A stretch of DNA of 33,191 bases from Alphaproteobacteria bacterium (lineage in GTDB: Bacteria; Pseudomonadota; Alphaproteobacteria; Micavibrionales; Micavibrionaceae), in NCBI GenBank assembly GCA_023141075.1, contig JAGLKL010000001.1:1-33191 (forward strand). The letters are read 5' to 3'. The notes beneath the pieces were generated by a model. The model did not search any database and had not been told where the DNA came from. It saw only the letters and a program-made list of their open reading frames with translations. Shown here piece after piece: positions 6,771-30,139 of the stretch. Position numbers and translations under genes: made by a program. Each line of letters opens with the position of its first letter. The first letter of the stretch is position 1.

Positions 6771-7160
6771 TTAGATAGTACCGAAAGTTACAGAGCGAAG
6801 ATTCGCTGAAGAAGCACCTGAACCTGTGTCTGCAGTGTTCAGTGTTTCTGTCATAGCTTCGAGTAAGATCGGAAGACCGAACAACATACCACCTGCCATC
6901 AGGCGAATAGCGCCGTCTTTCAAAGGTGTTTGTGATGGGTTTTCAACGTGATCTTTAATTTTCATCACACCAAGAACAGCAAGAAGCAAACCAGCAAGGT
7001 ACGCAATAGCCGCGATCAAGCCAGGTAGAGATGCGATGGATGTGTTGATACTATTAGCAATGGAACCAAAGTTGTTAGCAGCATGTGCATTACCTGCCAG
7101 CATTCCAACGGTCATTGCCGCACCCATAGTGTAGTATGTAGTTTTTGATTTTTTGAACAT
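6771..7160 (-). CDS. dotP: IcmD/DotP small inner-membrane T4BSS protein
   Basis: 129 aa with signal-like N-terminus and the module SLPGLIAAIAYLAGLLLAVLGVMKIKDHVENPSQTPLKDGAIRLMAGGMLFGLPILLEA. Strong RBS GGAGG 6 nt upstream of the ATG. Synteny supports the call. Confidence 0.8.
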   Translation of the reverse strand: MFKKSKTTYYTMGAAMTVGMLAGNAHAANNFGSIANSINTSIASLPGLIAAIAYLAGLLLAVLGVMKIKDHVENPSQTPLKDGAIRLMAGGMLFGLPILLEAMTETLNTADTGSGASSANLRSVTFGTI

Positions 7161-7332: not shown

Positions 7333-8982
7333 TTACAGACCAAAGCTCACGCCAAAAGCTGTGATACCTAATGTTTCTTGGATAGAGTTAAGTAATGGCC
7401 CCATATTCACTGCTAACGCACCACCTATCAGGTGGGTCATACCGGCCATTGTCGAGGCATTTCCTTTACCTTCAGCAACGTCACGCATAATAAACAGGCC
7501 ACGCACGAAACTGATCATCCCTAAAACAATCAGGAACTGCAAAACAGCGGATATAACGTTGTGTATTGCCTCTATTTCTGCCGGAGCCATACCGCCTGTA
7601 AACTGCAGAGTAGCCCACGTATATGTGACTGGGCTGACAAACATCGACGAAGAAAACGCACGTAAAAGGGTAGATGCCGATAAAAGCATACCGCCAATGA
7701 CAAATGTTCCGAATGTTCCTATGCCTCCAGGACCACGCGCACCTTCCTGCGAGGACTTAATAAGTCTTGAAATACCGATCATAATAAAGATCGTACCAGC
7801 CATAAAGGAGAAGAAATTCAAGGCTACGTGCGCAGGTCCCATAATATCGAGCATGAAACAGCCCATAGCTTCATCAAGCGAGTTTGCCCCCAATCCACAA
7901 CCTGGTCCAATTGTCGAGTTAAACCCGGTATTGGTAGTAAACATAGTCACTCCCATAAGGATGGGAGTCAAGAAGGATGACTGAAGAACTGTTATTAGAT
8001 AAGGCAAGGAGAAGAAACAACCACCGGCCAGCAAGCGCATCACGCCTTCACTAACAGCTGTACGCGAAGGTTCGATTACATGATCTCTTATCTTCAAAAC
8101 ACCCCACACGCCCAATACCAGACCCATCAAATAAGATATGGAATTGAGGAAAACAGGCATGGCACTGGAAGTAAGCAAACTATTACAAATTACCGCGCCA
8201 AGAGTGTCTCCAAGCCCCAAGAATATACCCAGACACTCAAAATTAGATGTTTCCGTAGAATAAAGGAAACCGGTTCCGGCAAAGATAGCGGTAATTGTGC
8301 CCAAAAACCCCATACCCGTACCGAAAATGGTGGTATACATGGCGTCAAAGACAGTCGGCATAGCAAATAAGGCACCGGCCGTCAGATAGCGGATGACAGC
8401 GTCTTTCAACGGAACCCTGCTTGGATCTTCGACATGATCACGTGTTTTATACAAAGCCGATACCGATATCACTATACCGAGTAAATAACCGACAGCCGCG
8501 ACCAAGCCCGGCATTCCCTCGACGGAAGCCATGATTTGACCAAGTATGGAGTTGAAGGTTATTCCCACCCATGTTGTTAAGGTCATTGTACCGAGAAACG
8601 CCCAAAACGTTATGAAGGTGTGTGCATTGTCATTAGAAATCGGGTCAAAGTCCGTTTCTGCACCCGGGCCGTTAATGGTAACCCAAGCAGCTTCAAAAAT
8701 AATAGGTAGGCCAAACAGGGCACCGGCCAAAAGATAGCGTATCACAGGGACACTAAGTGGCGTCTGTGTCGGACTATTAACATGATCAACTGTTTTAAAA
8801 ATAGCTATTACTGCGACAATCAGGCCACCTAAATAACATAAAGCAGCAAGAAGACCGGGAAGAGAAGCGGCACTGTCAACTATATTTTGACCAACATCGT
8901 CAACCGTCTGAGCATAACCAAGCTTAGAGAAGAGTAGAACAAAAAACACTCCAAATATAAGTGAATATAGGCTCTTTTTCAT
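7333..8982 (-). CDS. IcmC/DotE-like polytopic membrane protein made of five tandem IcmD/IcmC-type modules
   Basis: Start chosen at the ATG at 8982 (MKKSLYSLIFGVFFVLLFSKLGYA, a signal-like sequence) because AAGGAG lies 9 nt upstream. Three modules closely resemble IcmD (KTVDHVNSPTQTPL, KTRDHVEDPSRVPL, KIRDHVIEPSRTAV, each between two hydrophobic helices). Two further modules are more divergent. Confidence 0.75.
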   Translation of the reverse strand: MKKSLYSLIFGVFFVLLFSKLGYAQTVDDVGQNIVDSAASLPGLLAALCYLGGLIVAVIAIFKTVDHVNSPTQTPLSVPVIRYLLAGALFGLPIIFEAAWVTINGPGAETDFDPISNDNAHTFITFWAFLGTMTLTTWVGITFNSILGQIMASVEGMPGLVAAVGYLLGIVISVSALYKTRDHVEDPSRVPLKDAVIRYLTAGALFAMPTVFDAMYTTIFGTGMGFLGTITAIFAGTGFLYSTETSNFECLGIFLGLGDTLGAVICNSLLTSSAMPVFLNSISYLMGLVLGVWGVLKIRDHVIEPSRTAVSEGVMRLLAGGCFFSLPYLITVLQSSFLTPILMGVTMFTTNTGFNSTIGPGCGLGANSLDEAMGCFMLDIMGPAHVALNFFSFMAGTIFIMIGISRLIKSSQEGARGPGGIGTFGTFVIGGMLLSASTLLRAFSSSMFVSPVTYTWATLQFTGGMAPAEIEAIHNVISAVLQFLIVLGMISFVRGLFIMRDVAEGKGNASTMAGMTHLIGGALAVNMGPLLNSIQETLGITAFGVSFGL

Positions 8983-9272
8983 TAGTATATATCTCCTTAC
9001 GCAATCGCTCTGCATTAATTACAACATATTTAGTGAGCATCACGCAAATTTAAAACACATTCACCGCATTGTGTAACAATCATACCGGAATTTAGTTAAA
9101 ATTTTATCAATAATTATAGGTTTCCTAACCATATTCCTCTATGCGGTCAGTACAAAAAGCACAGCCACATGATCATTGCCTAATATAATTATCTCATTTT
9201 CTATCTATAGCCGGAATTATCCATCTATTTATTTAAGGTATGTTTTACGCCAATTTACTTAATAATTCAATA

Positions 9273-13078: not shown

Positions 13079-13732
13079 CTAACGCGCCATAGCAATCCAC
13101 TGTTCAATTCCCACCCCGTTAGAACTTTCAAGGCGCGGAACTCGTACGACGATAACCGTTACAAGAAGTCCCGTATTGGAAGTTTTTGTCCCTGACCTGT
13201 ATGTCAGAACCAGCGGAATTTGTACGACCCACTGATACCGTCCGGCCACCAGACCTTCCGATTGCAGAATCGGGGCACCTTTAGGTGCAGCAGTAATAAG
13301 CTGCTGATGCACTTCAACCATTTCAATAATACGCGAGCGTTGTAGCGCCTGAGTAAAACTTTCCCACCCTCGCTTGGTAAAATTACGGGAAGATTCTTGC
13401 AGCCGACGCCGATAATCGTTAAAGCCAAAAGTCATCACCTCGGTCGTGGCCTGTGCCACCCAGGACATCAGCGCGGGCGTACTCAAGTTTGGTTCACCCA
13501 ATGGTACCATCGGCACCAGACGCCCATCTTCGGTCGTAGCAAAATAGAAGTTCTGAGGCTGATTTACTTTAATAGTGTAATACATAGCTCCAACTAACCC
13601 GAGGATTACAATACTCTGTATTAGGGTCATCTTTAGAAGACTTCTATATCCATCCCTGTAAAACTCATTGCGAATAACAACGGTTCCCAACCCGGAGATG
13701 GACTTTTTTTTATCGGATTCTTTTTCTGTCAT
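13079..13732 (-). CDS. dotI: DotI/IcmL inner-membrane T4BSS protein
   Basis: 217 aa containing VIRNEFYRDGYRSLLKMTLIQSIVILGLVGAMYY (the IcmL-type N-terminal helix) and a periplasmic domain. It is the first gene of the block, as with icmL-icmK-icmE in known loci. Confidence 0.85.
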   Translation of the reverse strand: MTEKESDKKKSISGLGTVVIRNEFYRDGYRSLLKMTLIQSIVILGLVGAMYYTIKVNQPQNFYFATTEDGRLVPMVPLGEPNLSTPALMSWVAQATTEVMTFGFNDYRRRLQESSRNFTKRGWESFTQALQRSRIIEMVEVHQQLITAAPKGAPILQSEGLVAGRYQWVVQIPLVLTYRSGTKTSNTGLLVTVIVVRVPRLESSNGVGIEQWIAMAR

Positions 13733-13778
13733 ATTGCCTTCTTGATCGTGTTAAAAAAATTACGAACTTTTCACCATT

Positions 13779-13800
13779 GCTTAGGGTCTAAACCCATAGC
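13779..13800 (-). repeat. Motif C copy (minus strand: GCTATGGGTTTAGACCCTAAGC)
   Basis: Contains the small hairpin-capable core GGGTTTAGACCC, 47-68 nt upstream of the dotI ATG on the coding strand. Confidence 0.8.
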
Positions 13801-13993
13801 TTTTACCAATTCTGTATATAACTGATCTTTGAGCACAAAACTCAAAACAATCGCTCACACTTTAAAGATGCATTGTGTCGCAAAAAAACTTTTTACACAA
13901 TAACCCTGTGACGATATTTGCTCAAAAATTATCAAAAAACCCCAATTAATTTTCACTCAATATCATTATCCGTATTTCAGAGCTGGACATAAC

Positions 13994-14012
13994 ACGTGAC
14001 TACACTACCTAA
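13994..14012 (+). promoter_or_regulatory. Motif B copy 1 (ACGTGACTACACTACCTAA)
   Basis: The 19 nt are exactly identical to the reverse complement of 24384-24402. It lies 164 nt upstream of the first paralogue gene, in the same orientation relative to that gene as copy 2 is to icmT. Confidence 0.75.
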
Positions 14013-14175
14013 GTATAAGAAATATTTAGTGCCTTTTTTAAATAGCCTGTGATAAGCTACCACGCGATGTTACAAACGATTAACTTCAATACGATCTAGA
14101 TTTTAAAATTCGTTGAAAAAACATCGAAAATAAGGCAGCATAAGACACGATACTTACCGATTTAAGAGTTTTTTG

Positions 14176-15738
14176 ATGATTGATGCAGGTGATGCAAAAC
14201 AGACAAATAAGCCAATATGGTATGAATTCGGAAGTCTTTTTGTAAAGCTTTCGCTTTTTCTGGCCGTATTTTCTTTCAGCTTGACGGCAGTTCCACGAGT
14301 TACTTTAGCGTGCTGTACCGGGTGTCCGGATGTCGGTGCGGCAGTAGCGTATGTTGCTCAGTCTCATGTTGATTTGATTAATAACACGTGGCAAGAGTGG
14401 GATGATGACACAGACGCCTATGAAAACTGGCTGATAGACACGTTTCTTAATAAGGAAGTCGCTGTCGCGTCGGCTCTGATGGTTACTCAGATGTCTGCCA
14501 TAGCCATGCAATATACCCAGATTATCGGAGCATTTCTGGATGCGCAGACGCAACTCGAGACGCAGCGTGTTCTACGCCATCTTCAATATGAAGCGCACAG
14601 AGATTATATTCCCAGCGAAACCTTTTGTTATTTTGGTACAAACGTCAGAAGTCTAGGTGGATCAGAAGAAAAAGGGCGCTTAAATGCATTGATCTTATCG
14701 AGTATGTCTTTAGATCGGCAAATGGGTAATGTACATATGGCCGGAAGCATTGACTTTGGAGATGATCGAAAGTCCCGCTGGCATCAGTTTGTCCACACAT
14801 ATTGTGACCCTCTGGACAATAACTTTCAAGATGAAGTCGGTAACGCTGCGCTTGTAATGACGCTGGTCAGCCCTCTTAATTTAGCTGCAGGCACCATGTC
14901 CAGAACAGGGTTGGTTCTGGCATGTGATCATAACGGATCAGGCTCTGGTAACGATATCGGTGCGGATGATGAGCATCGCTTTAACCGCGACATCAACTAC
15001 ACGCGCTTGATTGAAAAACCGCGGACTTTGGAAATTGATTTATCGGATGATACAATGGACAGCTCTATAGATCCGGTAGACATGTTTTACGTTGGCCCGA
15101 TTAACCAGCCGGGCGATGAAGAAGATATTATTGCTATGTCCAAAAACCTTTACGGACACAACATTTTATCCCGTAGACTAACAAAAGTGCCGTTATCACG
15201 GTATGATGCAAGAAGGCTATATCTTGCATTGCGCGGTGTCGCTGCAAAAAGGAACGTTGCGCAAGCTAGTTACAACGCTATCGTGGCTCTGAAATCTGCG
15301 GGAACGGCACATGAGATGGAAAATGGCTTCGTTCCGGTTATAGTGCCGCCGTTTTCAGCAACCGTGTTGGAAACAAAACAAAGTCGGCGTTTTTTGGCAG
15401 CGGTTATTGACCAGCTTTTACCGAAGGATCCCGCATTGAGTGGATCAAATATATTCAGCCTGATCGGCTATAGTCCAAGTTATTTCTCACAACTGGAAAT
15501 ACTTGCCAAGCGCATCTATCAGAATCCGAGCTTTTATGCCGACTTATATGAATCGCCGACGAACGTTGCACGTAAAAAAGTGGCAATGAAGGCTATTGAA
15601 CTTATGGTCGACCGGGCAATATATGAAAGCCAGGTTCGCCGGGAAATGAGTATCTCTGTTTTATTGTCCAGCAAACTAAGGGCGTTACATCGTGATGCAA
15701 ACAAAGCCCTGTCAGGGGCGGTAGGACAAGAGGATTAA
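14176..15738 (+). CDS. T4BSS-linked secreted Cys-cluster protein, paralogue 1 of 5 (possible IcmX/TraW-like; family not recognised)
   Basis: The tracked ORF starts at TTG 14173; the ATG at 14176 is preferred, with AAGAG upstream. A hydrophobic N-terminal segment ends in TLA-CCTGC. All seven conserved blocks of the paralogue family are present, including SPSYFSQLEILAKRIYQNPSFYADLYESPTNVARKKVAMKAIELM. Confidence 0.8.
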   Translation: MIDAGDAKQTNKPIWYEFGSLFVKLSLFLAVFSFSLTAVPRVTLACCTGCPDVGAAVAYVAQSHVDLINNTWQEWDDDTDAYENWLIDTFLNKEVAVASALMVTQMSAIAMQYTQIIGAFLDAQTQLETQRVLRHLQYEAHRDYIPSETFCYFGTNVRSLGGSEEKGRLNALILSSMSLDRQMGNVHMAGSIDFGDDRKSRWHQFVHTYCDPLDNNFQDEVGNAALVMTLVSPLNLAAGTMSRTGLVLACDHNGSGSGNDIGADDEHRFNRDINYTRLIEKPRTLEIDLSDDTMDSSIDPVDMFYVGPINQPGDEEDIIAMSKNLYGHNILSRRLTKVPLSRYDARRLYLALRGVAAKRNVAQASYNAIVALKSAGTAHEMENGFVPVIVPPFSATVLETKQSRRFLAAVIDQLLPKDPALSGSNIFSLIGYSPSYFSQLEILAKRIYQNPSFYADLYESPTNVARKKVAMKAIELMVDRAIYESQVRREMSISVLLSSKLRALHRDANKALSGAVGQED

Positions 15739-15838
15739 TTACAAATCAAGTAATATAGTTATTGATACCGAATTATGAGTTCAACAGCACGTTAGAAAAA
15801 AAGAAGTATAAAAGGTAAAATTTAGTAGGACGAAAACA

Positions 15839-17284
15839 GTGTTTATCTGGAGCAAACATAAAAAAGAGACAGGCGAGCAGGGCGATCAACGTAAACCCGG
15901 AGGGCGTACGTTCAGACGTTTCGTCAGTACGCTGCTTGTTATCTCGCTACTATTTGGTTCTGCTCTAACAGTAAAACCGGAACCTGTGTACGCGGCGTTG
16001 TGTATCCCTTGTGCAGGATGCACGCCAGGGGATTTAGTGCTTACACTGGCAGGGCTGGTTATCCTTAATCTTATATGGGAGCCCATCATCGTCGACGATA
16101 TTACTTATATCATTAACCTTGAATATGAATTTCTCAATGAGACCTTTTTTGAGGATTTTTGGATTAAAGCTATGGCCGAGCTAACAGAGTATTTGAGCGC
16201 TTATGGTCTATATCAGGCAGAAATGGTTGGTTCTTTTTTCGATGCTAAAAATCAGCTTGAAACCAGCCGCTTGATATTCAAACTACAGGCCGAAGCGCAT
16301 AGAGACTATCATCCAAGCGACGATTTTTGCTGGATCGGAACCAATGCCAGAAGCCTCGCATCGTCAGAAAGCCTGTCACGTTTGAATATGTTAGCTATGT
16401 CAAAAATAGCTATGGATCGTCAGTTAGGTAAGCAAAACACGTCTTCCGGACATGATGATATCGGCGACCCGACAGGCCGTTGGCACCAATTCGTTGATAC
16501 ATTCTGTGATGAAAAAGACAATGCTTGGGATGAACCTGATTCCGGGCTGGAGCGTGCTTGTGATCATGACGGTAGCGGAGTCGGTGTGATTCTGGGTGCC
16601 AATGACCGCTCAAAGGTTAACATAGATCTGGATTATACCCGGTTAATAGAAATCCCGCGCACTCTGGAGATCAATTTTACGGATGCGACCATTCCGCCGG
16701 CAGTACCTGTTCCGTCCACGCTTGACGAAGAAGCCATACTGGCGATGTCTTCAAACCTGTATGGGAACGTAATATCTTCACGAACGATCAATTATGACAA
16801 AATGCATGACTATACAGCCGCCCGCAGTTTGTATCTGGATCAGCGTGCTGTCACGACCAGACGCGGCATAGCCCAAAACAGTTTTAATGCGATTGTGTCA
16901 ATGAAATCATCTGGCACAAGCAGTGCGACTACGGGCGCGGACACAGCCTCTTTTATGGCAGCAATATTACAGGAGCTTATGCCGGTCGGTACTCCGGATG
17001 ATGAGATTTTCGAGGTTCTTGGCGAAAACCCAAGCTATTATGCACAATTGGAAATGCTCTCCAAAAAAATATACGAAAACCCGAAATTCTTCGCAAAATT
17101 GTATGATACACCAGCGAACGTAGCACGTAAGGGAGTAGCAATGAAAGCAATCGAGCTTATGATCGATAGAGCTTTATTTGAAAGTGAGCTGCGTCAGGAG
17201 ATGTTGCTTTCTGTTATGTTGTCTACGGAGCTGGATCAGAAATTCCGTCGTGTTAACAAAGGCATGACAGGGAAGGATGATTAG
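15839..17284 (+). CDS. T4BSS-linked secreted Cys-cluster protein, paralogue 2 of 5
   Basis: GTG start with AGGA 9 nt upstream. N-terminal anchor followed by VYAALCIPCAGC. Contains QLETSRLIFKLQAEAHRDYHPSDDFC and NPSYYAQLEMLSKKIYENPKFFAKLYDTPANVARKGVAMKAIELM. Confidence 0.8.
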   Translation: MFIWSKHKKETGEQGDQRKPGGRTFRRFVSTLLVISLLFGSALTVKPEPVYAALCIPCAGCTPGDLVLTLAGLVILNLIWEPIIVDDITYIINLEYEFLNETFFEDFWIKAMAELTEYLSAYGLYQAEMVGSFFDAKNQLETSRLIFKLQAEAHRDYHPSDDFCWIGTNARSLASSESLSRLNMLAMSKIAMDRQLGKQNTSSGHDDIGDPTGRWHQFVDTFCDEKDNAWDEPDSGLERACDHDGSGVGVILGANDRSKVNIDLDYTRLIEIPRTLEINFTDATIPPAVPVPSTLDEEAILAMSSNLYGNVISSRTINYDKMHDYTAARSLYLDQRAVTTRRGIAQNSFNAIVSMKSSGTSSATTGADTASFMAAILQELMPVGTPDDEIFEVLGENPSYYAQLEMLSKKIYENPKFFAKLYDTPANVARKGVAMKAIELMIDRALFESELRQEMLLSVMLSTELDQKFRRVNKGMTGKDD

Positions 17285-17286
17285 CA

Positions 17287-18780
17287 ATGAGAAAGCCTAT
17301 GAACAGGGATACAGCCAAAGAAGCCTCATTGTTTAGCAATGCTAAGGCAAGAATTGCGTGGGAGGGGAGAATTCTTGCCGGGAGGGTTATATGGTTACTG
17401 CACCCGGTTTTGATATGTTGTCTGGTATTTTCTTTGGCCTTTATTATGCCGCGTCAGGCCAAGGCGTGTGTGCCTTGTGTAACGTGGCTCGGGATGTGGG
17501 ACAACGCGCTGTTATGGGACAAAACGGAAGATGTGCTTGATGAACACATTAATGATGAGTTCATGGAGCTTGAGCAATATATTTTAGGACATATATGGAT
17601 GAACACTGTTTTACCGGCAATGATGTTGTCCACTGAACAGCTTTCAGCGGTTGCAATACAGCAGGCAATGGCCATCGGTATGTTTCTTGATGCGGAGATA
17701 CAACTGGGGTCGCAAAGATTATTGCAGGAAATTCAGGCACAAACCTACAAAGATTTCCAACCAAGTCTTGGTATGTGTGAATTTGGCTCTTTATCAAAAG
17801 GTCTGGCTAACGCCGATATTCATGGAGATACATATGCTGTCATTTTCAGCGAGCGTTCTCAGGATCGCCAACTGGGTAAAGGAGACACGGCAGGGACATA
17901 TGGTCATGATCTGGATCAGAACAATCGTATTGTGCATTTCAAACAGCTGTTCTGTAACCAGAAAGACAGAGATGCCGCACTGGAAACTGTCTGCGCTAAT
18001 GTCACAGCGTGGGACAATGATGCTGACTTTAATGCCGCTGCGCGCAAACGCATGAACATGGACATTGATTATTACACACTTGTTGATAAGCCATGGACTC
18101 TCAAGATCGACTTTTCGAATCAGGAAATTCTAGACATAGCTGCAATCCCGGAAATACATAATGAGGATGAAGAGCATATTCTGGCCATGGTCGCTAATTT
18201 GTTCGGCCACGTTACGTTTGCACGACCCCCGGCAAAGCTCCTGGCCAATAAACCGGATAAAAAAGACTTGAACATTATGCAAGAACTATATCAGGATATG
18301 CGTGCAGTTGTTGCAAAACGCTCTGTCGCAGAAAACAGTTTGTTTTCTATTGCGTCCATGAAGGCTCAATCACCGCGCGTACTTGACAAATATGTCAGTG
18401 GCCCGGCCACGACTGACAGGATCCAGACAAGCGCAAGGCTTTATATGGAGAACATTTTGATAGGACTAGGTGTTCCCGTTACTGAGCTGTTATTGTTGAT
18501 GGACGAAAATCCCAGCTATTACGCCCAGATGGAAATATTGACGAAAAAGATATATCAGAACCCGAATTTCTTCACTAATCTTTATGATACACCGGCGAAC
18601 GTGGAGCGGAAAACAGTGGCTTTGCAGGCCATTAAACTTATGCAAAAATTTGATATGCTCAAAAGTCATTTGCGCGGTGAAGCCAATGTCTCGATATTAC
18701 TGGAAATGGCTGTAGAGGAATTACAAAGAGAAGTGGAAGATGAAATTCAGGCTATAAGTAAAAATGAAACCAACCAATAA
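17287..18780 (+). CDS. T4BSS-linked secreted Cys-cluster protein, paralogue 3 of 5
   Basis: The ATG lies 2 nt after the paralogue 2 stop, with GGAAGGA upstream. N-terminal anchor followed by AKACVPC. Contains NPSYYAQMEILTKKIYQNPNFFTNLYDTPANVERKTVALQAIKLM. Confidence 0.8.
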   Translation: MRKPMNRDTAKEASLFSNAKARIAWEGRILAGRVIWLLHPVLICCLVFSLAFIMPRQAKACVPCVTWLGMWDNALLWDKTEDVLDEHINDEFMELEQYILGHIWMNTVLPAMMLSTEQLSAVAIQQAMAIGMFLDAEIQLGSQRLLQEIQAQTYKDFQPSLGMCEFGSLSKGLANADIHGDTYAVIFSERSQDRQLGKGDTAGTYGHDLDQNNRIVHFKQLFCNQKDRDAALETVCANVTAWDNDADFNAAARKRMNMDIDYYTLVDKPWTLKIDFSNQEILDIAAIPEIHNEDEEHILAMVANLFGHVTFARPPAKLLANKPDKKDLNIMQELYQDMRAVVAKRSVAENSLFSIASMKAQSPRVLDKYVSGPATTDRIQTSARLYMENILIGLGVPVTELLLLMDENPSYYAQMEILTKKIYQNPNFFTNLYDTPANVERKTVALQAIKLMQKFDMLKSHLRGEANVSILLEMAVEELQREVEDEIQAISKNETNQ

Positions 18781-18815
18781 GGCTGAACAAGAAAGTCACA
18801 AGGCTGTTAGGAACT

Positions 18816-20177
18816 ATGGGTAAACTGTTTGATAAAATGCGATATGCGAAAACCTTAAAGATCATATTGATTTTTATGATCTTTATGGGATCTGTCGTTA
18901 CCGGCATTATCGTTAATCCACCGTCGACACAAGCAGCCTGCTGTCACTGTCCTGATTGCGAGCAGCCTTCCTTCGATGAAGACCTCGATAACTGGCCCCA
19001 TACGGAATTTATGATTACCATCTATATCTGGATGCAGCTTTTATTTCACCAGATGATATGGTTTGACCTTGTATACTGGCAACAACATATGCTGCCCATG
19101 TTTATGCATATTGGTAACCATTTGGCCGGTGTGGGCGCACTTCAAGTCATGATTATTGGACAATTTATCGACGCCCAGCAACACCTTGAAGCGCAGCGTG
19201 ATTTACAAATTATGCATGCACGGGCTCATAAAGATTATCACGCTAGTACAGGCATGTGCGAATTTGCTACACGTATCCAGAGTTTGGCGGCCAGCGAAAG
19301 AAAAGGCGAGGCAAATGCACTTATTTTAAGTGAACGTTCAACAGATCGGCTTTTGGGAAATGTTGATACCGGTGCATGGAGTGGTACAAAAGGAGATGTC
19401 ACAATTCGCCTTGAATTATACCAAAGAGAATTCTGCAATAGTTTTGATAACAATAACAGTTTGTCTGCAATGTGCTCCTCAGGACTGACGCCGCCACTTA
19501 CGGGAGCAAAAAAAGAGCGCCTCAATAAAGATATTGACTATCAAAGAGCCATTGAAGATCCTTGGACCATCGGATTTGATTTAACCGGGGGCGGTGTGCC
19601 GTCACACGGGGATGAGGGAGTGGCTTTAATGGCGAATAACCTTTATGGATATGAATCATTTTCGCGCGTGGATCAGGTGTCTTTGCTTAATTCTCCAGAT
19701 GATGAGACTACGAATGCACAGCAGGCTTATTTAGACCTGCGAGCCATCGTTGCAAAAACCAAAGTCGCGGAAAACAGCTTTAACGCTCTTATGGCGATGA
19801 AAGGGGAAGGAACGGCAGGGTCTCGTGATTATTTGGAATCATATCTGAAAGAGTTGGGCGTTTCCCCAGCTTATGTAACAAAGTATATTGGTGCAAACCC
19901 TAGCTATAACGCACAGATGGAAGTACTGACCAAGAAAGCTTACCAAAACCCGCTCTTTTATACGAATTTATACGGTAAACCGGCAAACGTGGAACGTAAA
20001 GGTGTTGCCATGCAAGCGATTGGACTGATTCAAAAGTTTGATTTGCTCAAAAGCTATTTACGCACCGAAGCGTCGATGTCAGTGCTTTTGGAATTATCGG
20101 TATTTAATCTGCAGCGTCAGGTCGAAGCAAATATCCACTCCTTTGATGAGCAGAGTATGGTGTTAAAACAGAATTGA
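18816..20177 (+). CDS. T4BSS-linked secreted Cys-cluster protein, paralogue 4 of 5
   Basis: N-terminal anchor followed by TQAACCHCPDC. Contains HLEAQRDLQIMHARAHKDYHASTGMC and NPSYNAQMEVLTKKAYQNPLFYTNLYGKPANVERKGVAMQAIGLI. An alternative start is possible at ATG 18837. Confidence 0.8.
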   Translation: MGKLFDKMRYAKTLKIILIFMIFMGSVVTGIIVNPPSTQAACCHCPDCEQPSFDEDLDNWPHTEFMITIYIWMQLLFHQMIWFDLVYWQQHMLPMFMHIGNHLAGVGALQVMIIGQFIDAQQHLEAQRDLQIMHARAHKDYHASTGMCEFATRIQSLAASERKGEANALILSERSTDRLLGNVDTGAWSGTKGDVTIRLELYQREFCNSFDNNNSLSAMCSSGLTPPLTGAKKERLNKDIDYQRAIEDPWTIGFDLTGGGVPSHGDEGVALMANNLYGYESFSRVDQVSLLNSPDDETTNAQQAYLDLRAIVAKTKVAENSFNALMAMKGEGTAGSRDYLESYLKELGVSPAYVTKYIGANPSYNAQMEVLTKKAYQNPLFYTNLYGKPANVERKGVAMQAIGLIQKFDLLKSYLRTEASMSVLLELSVFNLQRQVEANIHSFDEQSMVLKQN

Positions 20178-20198
20178 TGAGAAAACGAGGTATTTATT

Positions 20199-22103
20199 GT
20201 GCACTTAGTTAAGTCAGCAAAACCGGTATTCATAGTTATAGCTATCGTTTTAACGCTGGCCATGCTGTTTGGCGTTCTAACTTTAGGAAAAACGGGAAAT
20301 ATTTTTAAACCTCATAACAATGTTGCCAAGGTTACGTTGCGTAACTTCACTCCCGGAGCACAGGTAGATTACCGTATTTTATCGAGTGCCGGGGTTATTG
20401 CGGAAGAACAGACACAAGTTGATAAGCAAGGAACCTTGTCTCTTCCCATTGATAAAAATGTATTCGCAAAAAATAAGGGCAAAGAAGGAATAATCAAATA
20501 TGAGCTAAATGTTGAAAAACCCGAAATCCTGCAAAAGGGAAAACAAAAAGCCACAGCACTGGAAGAAAGTTCTAAGCCCGATCCTGCGGAACTGCTGAAC
20601 CTCATGCTTGCCCTTAACCCACGTGATGGCGAGATAGATGTTTCGATAAAAGGGCTGGGAGAATTTACGAGCGTCATATCAAAGAAAAATAATCAGGAAC
20701 AACAGCAACTAAGTGCTGACTGGGGCGGAATTTTTAAAACAACCTTGGGCGATTCGAAGGATCAGGGACAAATAAATCCCGATGAGTACAACAAACTGCA
20801 ACTTGTTTTCCAAGGCGCGGGCATACAAAGTGATCTACCGCTTGACTCGACGGGTATGCCTTTGGTCGAGGTGTTTGCACTAACCGGTGCAATTCTTGGT
20901 ATCGCTGGCAGAGACAAGCAAACGGCACAATGGGGCAGCCCGTTTTCTATGATGACCGAAGAGTTTTCGGCAGTTATGGTGCAGCAAACTACAATGATCG
21001 GGATGTTTATTGATGCAAGTGTACAACTGGAAACTCAGCGCAAATTACAAGAACTTCAGGCCAGAGCACATAAAGATTACCATCCCAGCGAGCAAATGTG
21101 CCGCATCGGATCTTACGTGCGCAGTGTTGCCCTCGCCGAAAGTAAGGTAGAATTGGAAAAAACAGCCTTAAACAAATATCTAATTAATCAGTATATGGGT
21201 GTTGTCCATTCATCCACAGCAGGGGGGCCGGATGTTTACGAACCGTTAAAAATACAAAATTATATTGACGATTACTGTCACACTGTAGATAACGGTTCGG
21301 CAATTGAGGCAATATGTGATGCAGTAATTGGTGGGACGACGGCTGCTACATTAGAGCGCATTAACAAAGACATTGATTATACACGCGCAGTGGAAACCAG
21401 GCTGACACTGGACATTAATTTTACGGACGGCATATTGGAGAATGACGAGGAAGACGTTCTTGCTATGGCGCGTTACCTATATTTTCCTACGACATTTAAT
21501 GCCCCCAAACCCGGGGCGCTGACAAAAGACCTCCGTCCTCATTATGAGTCGCGTAGCTTTGCCGCGCAAATGGGCGTAGCTCACAACTCTTTCATCAATA
21601 TCATTGGGATGAAAGCTTCTGCCCCGGAAGGACAGCCGACCACCACCACAGGTGTAGCGCCACCGGCTGCACCATTTGGGACAGGCCCTGCAAATAATAC
21701 GCCGTTTCTCACAACGCGACCGGTGCCTACAGTTTATGCAGAAGATTCAGGATGGGCATATATGAAGGCCATGCTACGCGATGAATTTGGTTTGGCTACA
21801 GTAGATATCGATAAAATACTGGGCGAGCGTCCAAGCTATTACGCACAAATGGAGGTTCTTACCAAAAAGATATATCAGAACCCGAATTTCTATGTCAATT
21901 TGTACGATAAACCAACCAATGTTAAACGAATCGGTGCAGCAATGGATGCTATTTTGCTTATGAATCAACGTGACCGCTTTGAGTCATTGCTACGCCGGGA
22001 AATGCTTACCGCAACATTGATCGAAAACACTCTTTATGACAAAGTTTCTGAAATCAACTCAGGTCTGCTTGAAGAAATGCAGCGTTCCCAAATTAGACAG
22101 TAA
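20199..22103 (+). CDS. T4BSS-linked paralogue 5 of 5, with an extra N-terminal region of about 244 aa and no Cys cluster
   Basis: GTG start with GAGG 9 nt upstream. A signal-anchor (VFIVIAIVLTLAMLFGVLTL) is followed by a unique region, then the family blocks from residue 245 or so (QLETQRKLQELQARAHKDYHPSEQMC ... RPSYYAQMEVLTKKIYQNPNFYVNLYDKPTNVKRIGAAMDAILLM). Confidence 0.8.
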   Translation: MHLVKSAKPVFIVIAIVLTLAMLFGVLTLGKTGNIFKPHNNVAKVTLRNFTPGAQVDYRILSSAGVIAEEQTQVDKQGTLSLPIDKNVFAKNKGKEGIIKYELNVEKPEILQKGKQKATALEESSKPDPAELLNLMLALNPRDGEIDVSIKGLGEFTSVISKKNNQEQQQLSADWGGIFKTTLGDSKDQGQINPDEYNKLQLVFQGAGIQSDLPLDSTGMPLVEVFALTGAILGIAGRDKQTAQWGSPFSMMTEEFSAVMVQQTTMIGMFIDASVQLETQRKLQELQARAHKDYHPSEQMCRIGSYVRSVALAESKVELEKTALNKYLINQYMGVVHSSTAGGPDVYEPLKIQNYIDDYCHTVDNGSAIEAICDAVIGGTTAATLERINKDIDYTRAVETRLTLDINFTDGILENDEEDVLAMARYLYFPTTFNAPKPGALTKDLRPHYESRSFAAQMGVAHNSFINIIGMKASAPEGQPTTTTGVAPPAAPFGTGPANNTPFLTTRPVPTVYAEDSGWAYMKAMLRDEFGLATVDIDKILGERPSYYAQMEVLTKKIYQNPNFYVNLYDKPTNVKRIGAAMDAILLMNQRDRFESLLRREMLTATLIENTLYDKVSEINSGLLEEMQRSQIRQ

Positions 22104-22116
22104 AGCGCTATTTTAT

Positions 22117-23754
22117 CTAGTCTTCTTCTTTTTGCACAGAGAGGCCATAAGGCGTCTCGCTTAGTACATATTCCGGAGCGCGTTTCAGCCCTTTCTTAAA
22201 CAAGATATCAACAGCATTTTTATACGTTCCGCTAATAAAGACATCATAATCGAGGGCATATTCTTTTGTTGCTTTCCAAGCCAAGGGCACGCGTTCTTTT
22301 GCACTCCACTCTTCGATTATCGTCTGCAAGCCGGATTTGCTTTTGGCTTGCCAGATACGGATTTTGTTACTCGGCTTTTCGAGGTAATGAGAGACTTGCT
22401 CCGGCGCTTCTACCACATCTTCTTTAGACACATCAGAAGAAATAGTGATTTGATCCTCGGCATTGCCCATAGAAGAATAATCCGGGATAATTTCGTTTAC
22501 TTGCGAAACGGAGGCTTCCTCTTCCTCAACTAAAGGGACGGAAAGCGGAGCGCTGGTGGCCTCTCCGTCGCTTACCGTTTTCATAGCGGAATCCTTAGAA
22601 TCAGACAGCACTATCTCATCCGTAGCACTTTTTTCAAATGGATTAGCCTCTTCCGGTTTCATCAAATCATCAACCAAAGCAGAAACTGTATTATCATTAT
22701 CTGCTATTTCACTGCCGGTAGCTGTTTTGTCGAGGACAACAGAATTGGTTGTTGTGGGAGCAGAAAGAATACTTTCGCTGCTCACTATTACTTCCGGCAT
22801 TTCTTCTGCATCGATAATTTCCTCAATAAAAAAAGCCTCTCCTTCTATCGAAGGGGTCTTTTCCTCAAGAGCGGCGCTCATAGCCTGTTCAGGCGAAACG
22901 GCAAGTTCTCTCGCGCCGTCTTCTCCAAGCTCTGCTACGGCAAGTTTTTTTATAGGCTCCGAAAATTCATTTTTTTTTTGCGCCGCCTGAGGGGCAGCGG
23001 CTTGTTCAGAATTTTCAGTGTCAGTCTTCAGGACTACCTTTTTATCATGTATGACGGCCTTTATCCCAAGCGGCGAAAGCGCATCATTTAGAACCTCATT
23101 CCACGGTTTTCCGCCCTCCCATGATACACGAGCCCCAAGATTGACACTGTCACTGAAAGAATAGGCATACTTCGCCGGAACAATCTGGCTAAGCGCCAAG
23201 GCCAAAGGTATTTTCATACCAAAGCCTTCTATAACCTCATAAGAAACACCTACACTGACCGGCGGCGAATGCATTTGTACATCAACCTGCCGGTCTTCTT
23301 CCTCAGATGCTGATCCATCATCTTTCACCGATCCATCATCTTTCAGAGGATAGGGGTCAAGGACAAGAGAGCCGACTTTGTTTTGAGGCGCTTCGGTCTC
23401 AACAGCCTCTTCTTTCTTATCTGAGAAATTGATTGTTTTGATTTCGACAGATTTTTCACCATCCCGGTCTGTATCTTGCTCAAGTATTTTAACCTCAATG
23501 GGAGGTTCATCCTCAAAAACAATTTCTTCAAGCCGGATGTCATAATATTCCGGCAACGCACTATCGAGAGCCACGTCCGAAGACATGGCCTCATCATCAA
23601 CTATGAAAACATCCGGACCCGCATCTTCCACATAATCGGGCTCGTCAGGCGGCGTCCATTTAAACTCCGCATGTGCCGGGTTGTTTGTAAATGTACCAAA
23701 AGCAAAAATTGAAATACATGTCGAAAGAAGTAAGCGGTTATATTTTGAACACAT
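22117..23754 (-). CDS. Secreted acidic protein with C-terminal TcpQ/PilL-like domain
   Basis: Start placed at ATG 23754 (MCSKYNRLLLSTCISIFAFGTFTNNPAHA, a signal peptide) rather than the tracked 23835. The C-terminus IRIWQAKSKSGLQTIIEEWSAKERVPLAWKATKEYALDYDVFISGTYKNAVDILF fits the TcpQ-type pattern as I remember it. An internal domain reads GFGMKIPLALALSQIVPAKYAYSFSDSVNLGARVSWEGGKPWNEVLNDAL. Confidence 0.55.
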   Translation of the reverse strand: MCSKYNRLLLSTCISIFAFGTFTNNPAHAEFKWTPPDEPDYVEDAGPDVFIVDDEAMSSDVALDSALPEYYDIRLEEIVFEDEPPIEVKILEQDTDRDGEKSVEIKTINFSDKKEEAVETEAPQNKVGSLVLDPYPLKDDGSVKDDGSASEEEDRQVDVQMHSPPVSVGVSYEVIEGFGMKIPLALALSQIVPAKYAYSFSDSVNLGARVSWEGGKPWNEVLNDALSPLGIKAVIHDKKVVLKTDTENSEQAAAPQAAQKKNEFSEPIKKLAVAELGEDGARELAVSPEQAMSAALEEKTPSIEGEAFFIEEIIDAEEMPEVIVSSESILSAPTTTNSVVLDKTATGSEIADNDNTVSALVDDLMKPEEANPFEKSATDEIVLSDSKDSAMKTVSDGEATSAPLSVPLVEEEEASVSQVNEIIPDYSSMGNAEDQITISSDVSKEDVVEAPEQVSHYLEKPSNKIRIWQAKSKSGLQTIIEEWSAKERVPLAWKATKEYALDYDVFISGTYKNAVDILFKKGLKRAPEYVLSETPYGLSVQKEED

Positions 23755-23956
23755 TTTATCTAATTCCCTAACGGAGTGACAATGCGCACAGCATTCCCAA
23801 GAAAACCATATGCCTCGTGAGGCACAACCAGCCATAGAAGGATATCTTTGTACAAGGCATAATTCAAGAGTTAAGTCATTTTATGACGCTATGTTAAGGC
23901 CATGCGCACTTATTTTCATGCTGGAGAGCTGTAAAATTCGAAAAAGCAGCCCTGTT

Positions 23957-27924: not shown

Positions 27925-29199
27925 TCAATCAGAAGAGAAGAAAGACATAGGGCTTCCGGCATTACCGGAAGACTTTTCTTTCTCATCTTCCCCATCTTCC
28001 TCATCCTTTTCATCAGCGGGCGGGGCAGATTGTCCTTGTTGAGGTTCTTCATCAACAGGTGCGGAAGAAGCCGGTCTTGTCGCACTTAACATCGCGTCCT
28101 CTCCTCCAGAAGGCTCTTTATCAACAGGTGCAGAAGAAGTCGGTCTTGTCGCGCTTAACATCGCTGCCTCTTCGCCGGAAGGCTCTTTATCCTCTTTTTC
28201 TTCCTCATTGCCTGAAAAGAATCCCATGGGGCTGGATTTTGTTGAGGTTTGTTGAGGTTTTTCTTCTTCAGCCTCTTTCTGAATATCCGGCACAGTCGCA
28301 TTTTCTTCTGTTGCAGCTTCGGCGAGCGGTTTATCCGGCGCGGAAGCCACATCTACAAGCCCGGATCCATCAGTAAATAAGTTCTCGATCTTGGCAATAT
28401 CCTCATCTGTGAAATGATTTGGCATAATATGTTTGCCCAAAACGGTAAGCATGCTCAGGCGTTTTTCAAACAACAACCAGATGTTTTCAATCTGGGTCTT
28501 GTTATCTTCCTCAGCGCGTACATCTTCATCCAGCGCCATTATACGGTTTTTCTCGCGAATGTGACACGAACAATAAAGCGGGATAAGACTACTCAAAATA
28601 AGGAGTTCACTCGATTTTTGTTCCGCTACTGATAGCTCCGTTCCCATTAATGCATGAGTAATTTCAGAGGCTTTTGTGCGCAGCTTTTCTGACACGTCTT
28701 GTATCATCCGCGCTTCATCCTGCCCATAGGAGAAATCTGCTACGGCATCAACAAGCGGTACATAATATTTAAGGTAAACAAGATTAGCCACAGTTCGCGA
28801 TAATGGCGAAAGGCCGCGGATATTCTCCGGGAATACTCCTTCCAGACGCTCCATAGGAATGTAGTTCTCGGAAAATGTTAAGAGCTTGTCAACCGAGCCG
28901 ACTGTACGCTTAAGCTCTGCTTGAGTAGGCAAGCTTCCTGAACGTTTATAATGGGCGGCGATAATGTGACAGGACAGCGTCGCAAGGTTAAGGCGTACTG
29001 ATACGTCTTTTTCTTCTTCTTCAATCAAATCCAGAAGGCCGCGAATATCATCGGCGTTATCGATAGTCTGACGCAACAAACGGGTCACATCTTCAATGAC
29101 CTTTTCTTCCGGCTCGTTCAGGGCAACCTGAATGACACCCTCAATAACAGGCAATCCGATATCATGCATTATTACGGTTAGAAGTTCTGCGCGCTTCAT
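27925..29199 (-). CDS. Hypothetical soluble protein with a folded N-terminal region of about 290 aa and a disordered acidic repeat-bearing C-terminus (candidate T4BSS substrate or adaptor)
   Basis: 424 aa with no hydrophobic helix. The C-terminal third is E/D/S/P-rich and carries two 23-aa repeats (DKEPSGEEAAMLSATRPTSSAPV and DKEPSGGEDAMLSATRPASSAPV). It also has two SPMGFFS / SPMSFFS motifs, the second at the extreme C-terminus. Confidence 0.6.
   Translation of the reverse strand: MKRAELLTVIMHDIGLPVIEGVIQVALNEPEEKVIEDVTRLLRQTIDNADDIRGLLDLIEEEEKDVSVRLNLATLSCHIIAAHYKRSGSLPTQAELKRTVGSVDKLLTFSENYIPMERLEGVFPENIRGLSPLSRTVANLVYLKYYVPLVDAVADFSYGQDEARMIQDVSEKLRTKASEITHALMGTELSVAEQKSSELLILSSLIPLYCSCHIREKNRIMALDEDVRAEEDNKTQIENIWLLFEKRLSMLTVLGKHIMPNHFTDEDIAKIENLFTDGSGLVDVASAPDKPLAEAATEENATVPDIQKEAEEEKPQQTSTKSSPMGFFSGNEEEKEDKEPSGEEAAMLSATRPTSSAPVDKEPSGGEDAMLSATRPASSAPVDEEPQQGQSAPPADEKDEEDGEDEKEKSSGNAGSPMSFFSSD
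28051..28188. repeat. Two tandem copies of a 69-bp coding repeat
   Basis: 28051-28119 and 28120-28188 align with few mismatches (ATCAACAGGTGCRGAAGAAGYCGGTCTTGTCGCRCTTAACATCGC...GGCTCTTT). They lie in frame within the 424-aa ORF. Confidence 0.9.
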
Positions 29200-29245: not shown

Positions 29246-30139
29246 TTAAGAGCGCACTCCCAGATCTGCAATCAGACCTTTAAGATCTTTGGGCATACCG
29301 CGGATAATCTTCACTTTGCCATCTTTTCCGCGATAGGCAATAAGCGGGGTAACGCTCAGTTTCCATGATTGCATAACGGACAAATTGCGTTGTATGCCTT
29401 GTTTACTGATCTCAGGAGAAGCCGGTAAGGCTTCTTTATCGCCTTCAAGATAACGCCAGAACAAATCTACGGGAGCAGGCGCCGCTAACATATAAGCTGC
29501 CTGTGCCTGTGTTTCGTCACGAAAACCGACGGGAATTATACGCACTTGTACCTTGCCGCTTTCAATATAAGGTTTAAGCGCAACCATCATATTGTAGCAA
29601 TGAGAGCATTGTATATCGATAAAACTGTAAAACAGTGGTGTACCGGCTTGTCCCACGGGCAGCCAGTTACTATTTTCCAGATCAAAATAAAGCTGTTCGG
29701 AAGGAGTTTTGAACTCATATCTATCTGCTTTACCCGCTTCTTGTACATGAGTGGGCATCGGGGGCACATCAGCGGCCAACGAGTCAAGCAATTCCCCACT
29801 TTGTTCGCGCAAACGCCTTACCTGATTAACGGTCACGGCTTTGCCCTTAACATCAAACAAAATGCCGCTAAGAAAGCTGCCATTTGGCAAAACATAGAAA
29901 TACTGTTCCTGCCCGTTTTTAATAGCAATCCATCCGTCAACCCCGTTATCTTTTCCCAAAAAGCGGATTTGTGCGCCCTCATTAGCCAGATTTTGTATCG
30001 GATCCGGCATTTTCGGCAGCAAAGTATCGTTGCTATTTTGTGCAAAGACAGGATTCCCGGCAAAAGACAAGATTGCTATTCCGGCGCAAAGGGACAGGAA
30101 TTTTCTAAAAAGTCTGTAAAGCATAATTCTGTAAGTCAT
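29246..30139 (-). CDS. Periplasmic thioredoxin-fold thiol:disulfide interchange protein, DsbC/DsbG-like
   Basis: 297 aa. Signal peptide (LSLCAGIAILSFAGNPVFAQ), an N-terminal domain, then FIDIQCSHCYNM (CxxC active site) and a C-terminal TPLIAYRGKDGKVKIIRGMP (cis-Pro loop region). GAGG lies 9 nt upstream of the ATG. Confidence 0.75.
   Translation of the reverse strand: MTYRIMLYRLFRKFLSLCAGIAILSFAGNPVFAQNSNDTLLPKMPDPIQNLANEGAQIRFLGKDNGVDGWIAIKNGQEQYFYVLPNGSFLSGILFDVKGKAVTVNQVRRLREQSGELLDSLAADVPPMPTHVQEAGKADRYEFKTPSEQLYFDLENSNWLPVGQAGTPLFYSFIDIQCSHCYNMMVALKPYIESGKVQVRIIPVGFRDETQAQAAYMLAAPAPVDLFWRYLEGDKEALPASPEISKQGIQRNLSVMQSWKLSVTPLIAYRGKDGKVKIIRGMPKDLKGLIADLGVRS

Follow-up and report, generated by a model that had tools for sequence, protein, structure and literature searches.

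We describe a tandem array of five genes encoding proteins predicted to be exported, found on a 33,191-nt stretch of DNA from a member of the Micavibrionaceae (contig JAGLKL010000001.1; 'the window', along which positions 1–33,191 are numbered) at the junction of the two core operons belonging to a type IVB secretion system (T4BSS). Judged by profile comparison, the five proteins are a distant branch of the TraW family, and we think it likely that they act as VirB5-equivalent, TraW/IcmX-family stalk or tip subunits of this chromosomal T4BSS, probably working together. What is new here is the conserved organisation of the array, with three subfamilies and three to five genes, together with the lineage that carries it; to our knowledge, every type IVB system that has been characterised relies on a single IcmX/TraW gene.

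Five paralogues related to TraW

The array consists of five open reading frames (ORFs) on the forward strand, between positions 14173 and 22103, with gaps of 100, 2, 35 and 21 nt from one to the next. Coordinates, lengths and gaps are exactly those given in the original prediction, made from the sequence alone, and the paralogy that it proposed is borne out by an alignment of the five proteins (MAFFT), in which copies 2–5 share 29–43% identity with the first copy and 50 columns are invariant. The collinear conserved blocks listed earlier reappear among these columns, which include G.F.DA..L...R, D..PS...C, N.D..Y and PSY..Q.E.L.K..Y.NP.F...LY..P.NV.R; with 80 homologues aligned, the invariant columns number 29. 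It is in their N-terminal and middle regions that the paralogues diverge most from one another.

Each of the five proteins has one N-terminal hydrophobic segment. In copies 1–4 this is closed by a small-x-small site (positions −3/−1) with a cluster of cysteines directly after it: the Sec-type signal of copy 1 ends TLA, followed by CCTGC, and those of copies 2, 3 and 4 end VYA, AKA and TQA, followed by ALCIPCAGC, CVPC and ACCHCPDC respectively. Signal peptides were judged heuristically, by hydropathy and the −3/−1 rule only; on this basis copies 1–4 would be exported through Sec and cleaved, which would put the cysteine cluster at the N-terminus of the mature protein. In copy 5 the hydrophobic segment is a stronger anchor that looks uncleaved, with neither the small-x-small site nor the N-terminal cysteine cluster, and the conserved core is preceded by an extra N-terminal extension of ~200 amino acids (aa) made up of this membrane anchor, a small domain of beta-like appearance and a linker; the protein would remain tethered to the inner membrane. 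The single architecture originally ascribed to all five proteins therefore holds for copies 1–4 (signal and cysteine cluster) but not for copy 5, whilst the export signals that an IcmX/TraW-like role calls for are predicted to be present.

The relationship to TraW emerges from profile–profile comparison. With E. coli IncI TraW (plasmid NZ_CP122641.1) as query, and an exhaustive HMMER search using a TraW alignment, we assembled a TraW-family set of 177 representatives (50% clustering), of which 74 full-length sequences were aligned. Compared with this set in hhalign, the whole array family matches at 97.6% probability (E 2.8e-12, score 98.7) over 323 columns, the alignment spanning positions 81–427 of 432, or nearly the entire TraW model. 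The match is repeated by each of the three subfamilies described below: subfamily A at 98.1–98.2% (E 4e-14 to 9e-14, 316–318 columns; 98.1% for the row of paralogue 1 and 98.2% for that of paralogue 2), subfamily B at 97.6% (E ~3e-12, 332–333 columns) and subfamily C at 96.1% (E 2.9e-9, 312 columns). Reversed or column-shuffled controls gave probabilities of ≤0.3%, with E-values of 0.19–0.9 and scores of 11–18. A plain hidden Markov model (HMM) of the TraW family, run against the 8,664 six-frame ORFs of the window and related loci, produced 208 matches at E≤10, all of them to members of the array family and 161 below 1e-3; in the window, it finds copy 4 (E 8.6e-6), copy 1 (E 9e-5) and copy 2 (E 0.013). 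Significance is reached only with a diverse set, a single TraW sequence or 20 close relatives giving E ~0.1 against the family profile; the weak hhalign alignments still matched the motif ETQRL..EA(R/H)K..xP(D/S)xxC and further cysteines in register. In a merged alignment of 119 sequences from both families, between which identity is 11–16%, two cysteines are invariant (C148 and C220 of paralogue 4) and D239, N275, Y305, S363 and N378 nearly so.

Predicted structures point in the same direction, towards IcmX. The AlphaFold2 model of copy 4, built from an 80-sequence alignment (predicted local distance difference test score, pLDDT, 76.8), is all-alpha: a 77-residue helix at the N-terminus and one of 60 residues at the C-terminus flank a loop-rich middle. 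A second model, made independently for copy 1 (pLDDT 74.5), is also all-alpha. When the copy 4 model was compared with the PDB in Foldseek no match was significant, the highest probability being that of 9ngy chain AP1 (0.57; E 0.69, 239 columns, rank 3); for copy 1, the same chain ranks first (probability 0.66, E 0.19, 301 columns), with other matches at ≤0.07. We take this chain of 417 residues to be IcmX of the in-situ Legionella DotA–IcmX protochannel. The models appear to have the layout of helices and loop-rich middle published for IcmX, in which a signal peptide and an N-terminal helix precede a loop-rich extended domain (residues 90–290), followed by C-terminal helices (bioRxiv 10.1101/2025.06.23.660953). 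According to the same study, IcmX is a pentamer above DotA, structurally related to VirB5; this cap closes the DotA channel and is proposed to move outward on activation, the DotA–IcmX pentamer of Legionella being proposed both to gate the channel and to extend to the host membrane. In a table of type IV secretion system components, R64 TraW and IcmX share the VirB5 row, where TraW, IcmX and VirB5 appear as periplasmic pentamers of the stalk/pilus (PMC12624023).

Three ancient subfamilies

A homologue search recovered at least 390 clusters, all unnamed or hypothetical and none with a Pfam domain. The few clusters with a named source come from metagenome-assembled genomes (MAGs) labelled Alphaproteobacteria, Micavibrio or Rhodospirillales, and one is labelled Zetaproteobacteria. 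Taking one genome per species, we surveyed 77 loci with flanks of ~10 kb (numbered with the prefix L where they have to be told apart); almost all of them are MAGs whose titles read Micavibrio, Alphaproteobacteria, Rhodospirillales, Pseudobdellovibrionaceae or Bdellovibrionales, while one is titled Alcanivorax and one Verrucomicrobia. Overall, we found the family only in Micavibrio-like alphaproteobacterial MAGs. Wherever the flank suffices, the array adjoins dotI and is transcribed away from it, and T4BSS genes flank it, so that the co-occurrence with a T4BSS anticipated from the window alone extends across the survey; in 54 of the 77 loci, the TcpQ-like/icmT/dotB operon is seen on the other side.

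Clustering divides the proteins into three subfamilies, A (copies 1 and 2 of the window), B (copies 3 and 4) and C (copy 5). Across loci, A and B members usually have a signal and a cysteine cluster (58 of the 107 A members and 95 of the 121 B members have the cluster after the signal), and C members the anchor and extra domain. The gene order in the 63 complete arrays is always A, then B, then C, with exactly one C gene, always last, and at most two A and two B genes. Thirty of these arrays are AABBC, as in the window, and 21 are ABC; the remainder are AABC (6/63), ABBC (4/63) or BBC (2/63). Copy number therefore runs from three to five across species and five is not universal. As a general rule, 'five genes because of five-fold symmetry' is ruled out by the 21 complete ABC arrays, which have three genes.

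The subfamilies are ancient. Neighbour-joining trees indicate that A and B each underwent one old duplication in a clade of which the window is a member (~30 species), with several later, independent duplications, AABBC having arisen independently in L067 and L071. Between the window and its closest relative (L001), orthologues of the five array genes are 62–72% identical, to be compared with 69% for DotG, 79% for DotC, 91% for DotB and 39% for the TcpQ-like protein; the array genes are therefore conserved, not hypervariable. As a separate observation, the second A copy of L071 (7220–8568) is split into ORFs of 267 and 190 aa, which reflects either a frameshift or pseudogene or else an assembly error.

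Organisation of the locus

The features of the locus are collected in Table 1. As originally described, the array is divergent from dotI and convergent with the icmT operon, the TcpQ-like, icmT and dotB genes lying on the opposite strand. The left flank, on the reverse strand, has the gene order of Legionella icmL-K-E-G-C-D-J-B, and the right flank, also on the reverse strand, encodes the 572-aa TcpQ-like protein, IcmT, DotB, DotC, DotD, an SLT transglycosylase, a 424-aa acidic protein and a DsbG-like protein. DotI, DotH, DotB, DotC and DotD were matched by Pfam and IcmT was identified by a precomputed PF28014 assignment; DotG, DotF, DotN, the TraQ-like C-terminus of a 560-aa protein and a 129-aa IcmD/TraR-like protein were matched by NCBIfam models, mostly below curated cut-offs. 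A 1003-aa protein in the left flank matches IncI TraU, the DotO/IcmB equivalent (phmmer 1.5e-86). Beyond the locus, the contig carries housekeeping genes only (M48 peptidase, parB, parA, M23 peptidase), from which we conclude that the system is chromosomal. A scan of the region between dotI and the array for promoter and terminator consensus sequences gave nothing above chance.

Table 1. Array genes and neighbouring features, in window coordinates
Feature	Position	Strand	Description
129-aa IcmD/TraR-like protein	6771–7160	-	single two-helix module
560-aa DotE-like protein	7333–9015	-	five tandem two-helix modules
dotI/icmL	13079–13732	-	Pfam PF11393, E 3.6e-63; first gene of the divergent dotI-H-G-F-E-P-N-O operon
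dotI–array intergenic region	13733–14175		position only; promoters of both operons presumed
Paralogue 1	14176–15738	+	subfamily A; TraW/IcmX-like; 520 aa from the ATG at 14176 (public gene call); ORF opens at TTG 14173 (521 aa)
Paralogue 2	15839–17284	+	subfamily A; TraW/IcmX-like; 481 aa; groups with paralogue 1 in clustering
Paralogue 3	17287–18780	+	subfamily B; TraW/IcmX-like; 497 aa
Paralogue 4	18816–20177	+	subfamily B; TraW/IcmX-like; 453 aa
Paralogue 5	20199–22103	+	subfamily C; 634 aa; TraW/IcmX-like core ~residues 235–634
TcpQ-like protein	22117–23835	-	572 aa (545 aa in public gene calls); very acidic
Acidic 424-aa protein	27925–29199	-	no predicted transmembrane segment; no family match
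DsbG-like thiol:disulfide interchange protein, periplasmic	29246–30139	-	NCBIfam NF008657, E 3.2e-34, below curated cut-off; locus edge

Only the C-terminal ~60 aa of the 572-aa protein are TcpQ-like (Pfam E 1.7e-5, below cut-off); the same domain also matches the 143-aa protein that opens the TraW operon of a Roseomonas plasmid. The protein is evolving much more rapidly than those around it, at 39% identity to its L001 counterpart versus 62–95% for the others. Most other loci have two further ORFs of ~800 and ~404 aa between the subfamily C gene and the TcpQ-like gene, on the strand of the array (for example L002 13226–16931, L005 13354–16999 and L029 13257–16919). The larger of these has a FlgK-like N-terminus (MGLSSLSSALSGLRVNQQQIDV...ANV.T.G..RK) and the pair resembles flgK and flgL by eye; it is absent from the window and from L001.

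The five modules of the 560-aa protein lie at residues 32–117, 148–233, 275–346, 401–458 and 492–552 (phmmer independent E-values 1e-23 to 3e-3), and its homologues in other loci, of 547–716 aa, have three to five detected modules. R64 TraR is listed as the VirB2 equivalent (PMC12624023); from the five fused modules, we conclude that the pilin-like component has been multiplied as well, by fusion rather than as separate genes.

The DsbG-like protein is a possible helper for the cysteine-rich exported subunits; Legionella DotA is itself reported to have five disulfides per protomer (bioRxiv 10.1101/2025.06.23.660953). The gene for the DsbG-like protein is seen in three of the 77 loci (L001, L070 and L076), most 10-kb flanks stopping short of the position. 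The neighbouring 424-aa protein, which has a duplicated segment at its C-terminus (KEPSGEEAAMLSATRPTSSAPVD / KEPSGGEDAMLSATRPASSAPVD), was detected in L001 and L076 only.

Assembly of the subunits and comparison with known systems

How secure, then, is the assignment of the array to the TraW/IcmX family? Several results weigh against it. Scans of the five proteins with Pfam, NCBIfam and PHROG gave only noise, with nothing at E≤1, and none of the five matched the curated TraW model NF033888 (conj_TraW, cut-off 100 bits) at that threshold. The IcmX chain was not retrieved from PDB sequences by the profile of the array family (E≤10), by that of the TraW family or by the merged profile. The Foldseek scores to IcmX are individually non-significant (E 0.19–0.69, TM-score 0.18–0.25) and come from models with a pLDDT of ~75; the link to IcmX is accordingly the weaker one, drawn from the equivalence of TraW and IcmX in the literature and from these two weak structural matches. 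Moreover, phmmer found no DotA/TraY (queries: E. coli TraY and a Roseomonas TraY-like protein), the known partner of IcmX/TraW, no TraX or TraV and no coupling protein DotL/IcmO, either in the window or within 10 kb in the 77 loci.

As to the curated models, the Pfam scan was uninformative on TraW, PF28212 not being in the set and E. coli TraW itself going unmatched there. NF033888 gives E. coli TraW 556 bits and divergent TraW-family representatives 62–104 bits; the five proteins fall below its reach and so stand as a distant branch, outside the IncI TraW equivalogs. Other searches—of PDB sequences with E. coli TraW and with one TraW-family representative, of plasmids with paralogue 4 (tblastn) and of the five proteins with VirB5-type Pfam models (type IVA VirB5/TrbJ)—gave no relevant match. 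Although curated models do miss it, the family which the original prediction called unrecognised thus belongs to a known one, that of TraW, of which it forms a very divergent branch; the profile searches uncovered no family unrelated to secretion. The leading suggestion made at that time, an expanded IcmX/TraW-like periplasmic component, finds support in the hhalign match to TraW, its repetition by each subfamily and the HMM search, and weakly in Foldseek.

With regard to the missing partners, the window (1–33191) and the 77 loci also lack DotM, a relaxase and an IcmS/W-type chaperone. Unless there is a second locus, the machine is a non-conjugative type IVB system in reduced form. On the Roseomonas plasmid, the operon divergent from dotI consists of a TcpQ-like gene, two small genes, a single TraW-like gene, a 478-aa gene and TraY/DotA; from the position of that single TraW-like gene, we conclude that the array occupies the equivalent operon, and that DotA has been lost or relocated. 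A Bosea megaplasmid, with its T4BSS genes scattered, was uninformative.

We envisage that copies 1–4, exported through Sec, and copy 5, tethered to the inner membrane, would assemble on the axis of the machine as a stalk or tip, where they could gate the channel and contact the target cell; the DsbG-like protein encoded in the locus may attend to the disulfide-rich subunits. All three subfamilies are retained in essentially every species, and for this reason it is most likely that A, B and C function jointly and are not spares for one another. One mixed ring, stacked rings and alternative rings are all conceivable.

The most specific form of the mixed ring is a central five-fold cap built as an obligate A,A,B,B,C heteropentamer, with one gene per position in five-gene species and five positions filled from three products in three-gene species. 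The ceiling on copy number (A≤2, B≤2, C=1) is compatible with this, as circumstantial evidence; we regard the arrangement as a possibility, albeit a doubtful one. In such a heteropentamer, the single membrane-tethered C subunit would break the symmetry, and might replace, or dock onto, the missing or relocated DotA; the 560-aa protein with its five VirB2-equivalent modules could then be a matching single-chain pseudo-pentamer at the inner membrane.

Rather than sharing a ring, each paralogue could form its own homo-oligomeric VirB5/IcmX-like tip, used on different machines or at different times and giving different target or prey specificities, much as in the amplified surface components of the Bartonella Trw system. 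VirB5-class proteins are exposed and contact the target, being listed as stalk/pilus components (PMC12624023); copy number varies among species, with several independent duplications, and the greatest differences between paralogues fall in the N-terminal and middle regions. Such interchangeable caps are, however, difficult to square with the same three subfamilies, in the same order, in essentially every species, with a single C and nothing beyond two copies, or with orthologues that are well conserved rather than hypervariable, and the distinct make-up of subfamily C (anchor and extra domain) argues for a division of labour; on balance we find them unlikely.

The missing DotA/TraY homologue raises a further idea, in which the family supplies both a VirB6-like platform and a VirB5-like cap: anchored C would form a base near the inner membrane, with rings of B and A stacked above it. 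The fixed A–B–C gene order would suit such a stack, as would the fact that only C has a non-cleavable-looking anchor and a long linker. But C has one predicted transmembrane segment where DotA and VirB6 have several hydrophobic helices, and with ~10 kb covered on each side, DotA may be encoded elsewhere (compare the two-region layout in Legionella), making this replacement of DotA quite improbable.

Finally, the array might encode dedicated cargo rather than part of the machine—a pore-forming toxin or translocon of three alpha-helical components, released onto prey—as could be imagined from three ancestral paralogues in one operon, all-alpha models with long helices, low-ranking Foldseek matches to AhlC, MakA and PaxB, the Micavibrio-like hosts (M. 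aeruginosavorus being an epibiotic predator) and the release of Legionella IcmX itself into culture supernatant (bioRxiv 10.1101/2025.06.23.660953), but this is very improbable given the statistically strong homology to TraW, Sec signals that are atypical of T4BSS substrates in general, and toxin matches at probabilities of ≤0.11 versus 0.57–0.66 for IcmX. A toxin of the ClyA superfamily (AhlABC, MakABE) was rejected on these Foldseek probabilities and the TraW homology; the copy 4 model matches AhlC at 0.11 and MakA and PaxB at ≤0.04, all with a root-mean-square deviation above 28 Å, and the copy 1 model gives no such match.

Taking the five proteins as stalk or tip subunits, as we prefer, they belong to a class which, in IcmX and VirB5, sits at the business end of type IV secretion machines. 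Three differentiated versions, and five genes in many species, amount to a natural experiment on the construction of a five-fold cap, bearing on whether such a cap can lose its symmetry and on how contacts with the core and with the target are divided among its surfaces. The array also shows that Micavibrio-like bacteria have a conserved chromosomal system of Dot/Icm-like type, which is a candidate device for contact-dependent delivery directed against other cells. A literature search found no paper linking Micavibrionales with T4BSS, and the genome paper for M. aeruginosavorus ARL-13 gives no type IV secretion system (PMC3189940). In practical terms, NF033888 misses this branch, and including it would improve T4BSS annotation.

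Among known systems, one parallel is the type IVA cag system of H. pylori, where several related, exported and co-operonic proteins (CagL, CagI and CagH), grouped around a VirB5-like protein, are thought to cooperate at the surface of the machine. CagL, given as the VirB5 equivalent in PMC12624023, is among the weak Foldseek matches of the copy 4 model (ranks 7 and 20, probability 0.08–0.09); sizes and domain content differ from those of the array, and no sequence relationship was detected. The Trw system of Bartonella, also type IVA, has tandemly amplified trwJ (VirB5), trwI, trwH and trwL (VirB2). It shares with the array the tandem multiplication of a VirB5-class, surface-exposed component; its copies, however, are recent, similar and co-amplified with VirB6 and VirB7, whereas the paralogues described here are ancient (29–43% identity), ordered and capped at 2+2+1.

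Closer to hand, Legionella pneumophila IcmX (9ngy) likewise belongs to a Dot/Icm-type locus, and no PDB structure has a higher match probability for either model, the scores being weak. It is the product of a single gene, a homopentamer bound to DotA; the array, unlike IcmX, has three subfamilies, one of them membrane-anchored, with no DotA seen and no match at the sequence level. Also close is TraW of IncI1 (R64-type) plasmids (NF033888, PF28212). This is a single-copy gene in traU-V-W-X-Y, beside TraY/DotA, and its product is called a lipoprotein by one source, whereas the array has three to five copies with Sec-type signals, beside dotI and with no TraX or TraY nearby. TraW and the array proteins nonetheless have in common ~320 homologous residues, the motif ETQR...EA(H/R)K..xP..xC, two invariant cysteines and a conserved C-terminal block, and both are exported, the array proteins by prediction, and encoded in an MPF_I/T4BSS cluster.

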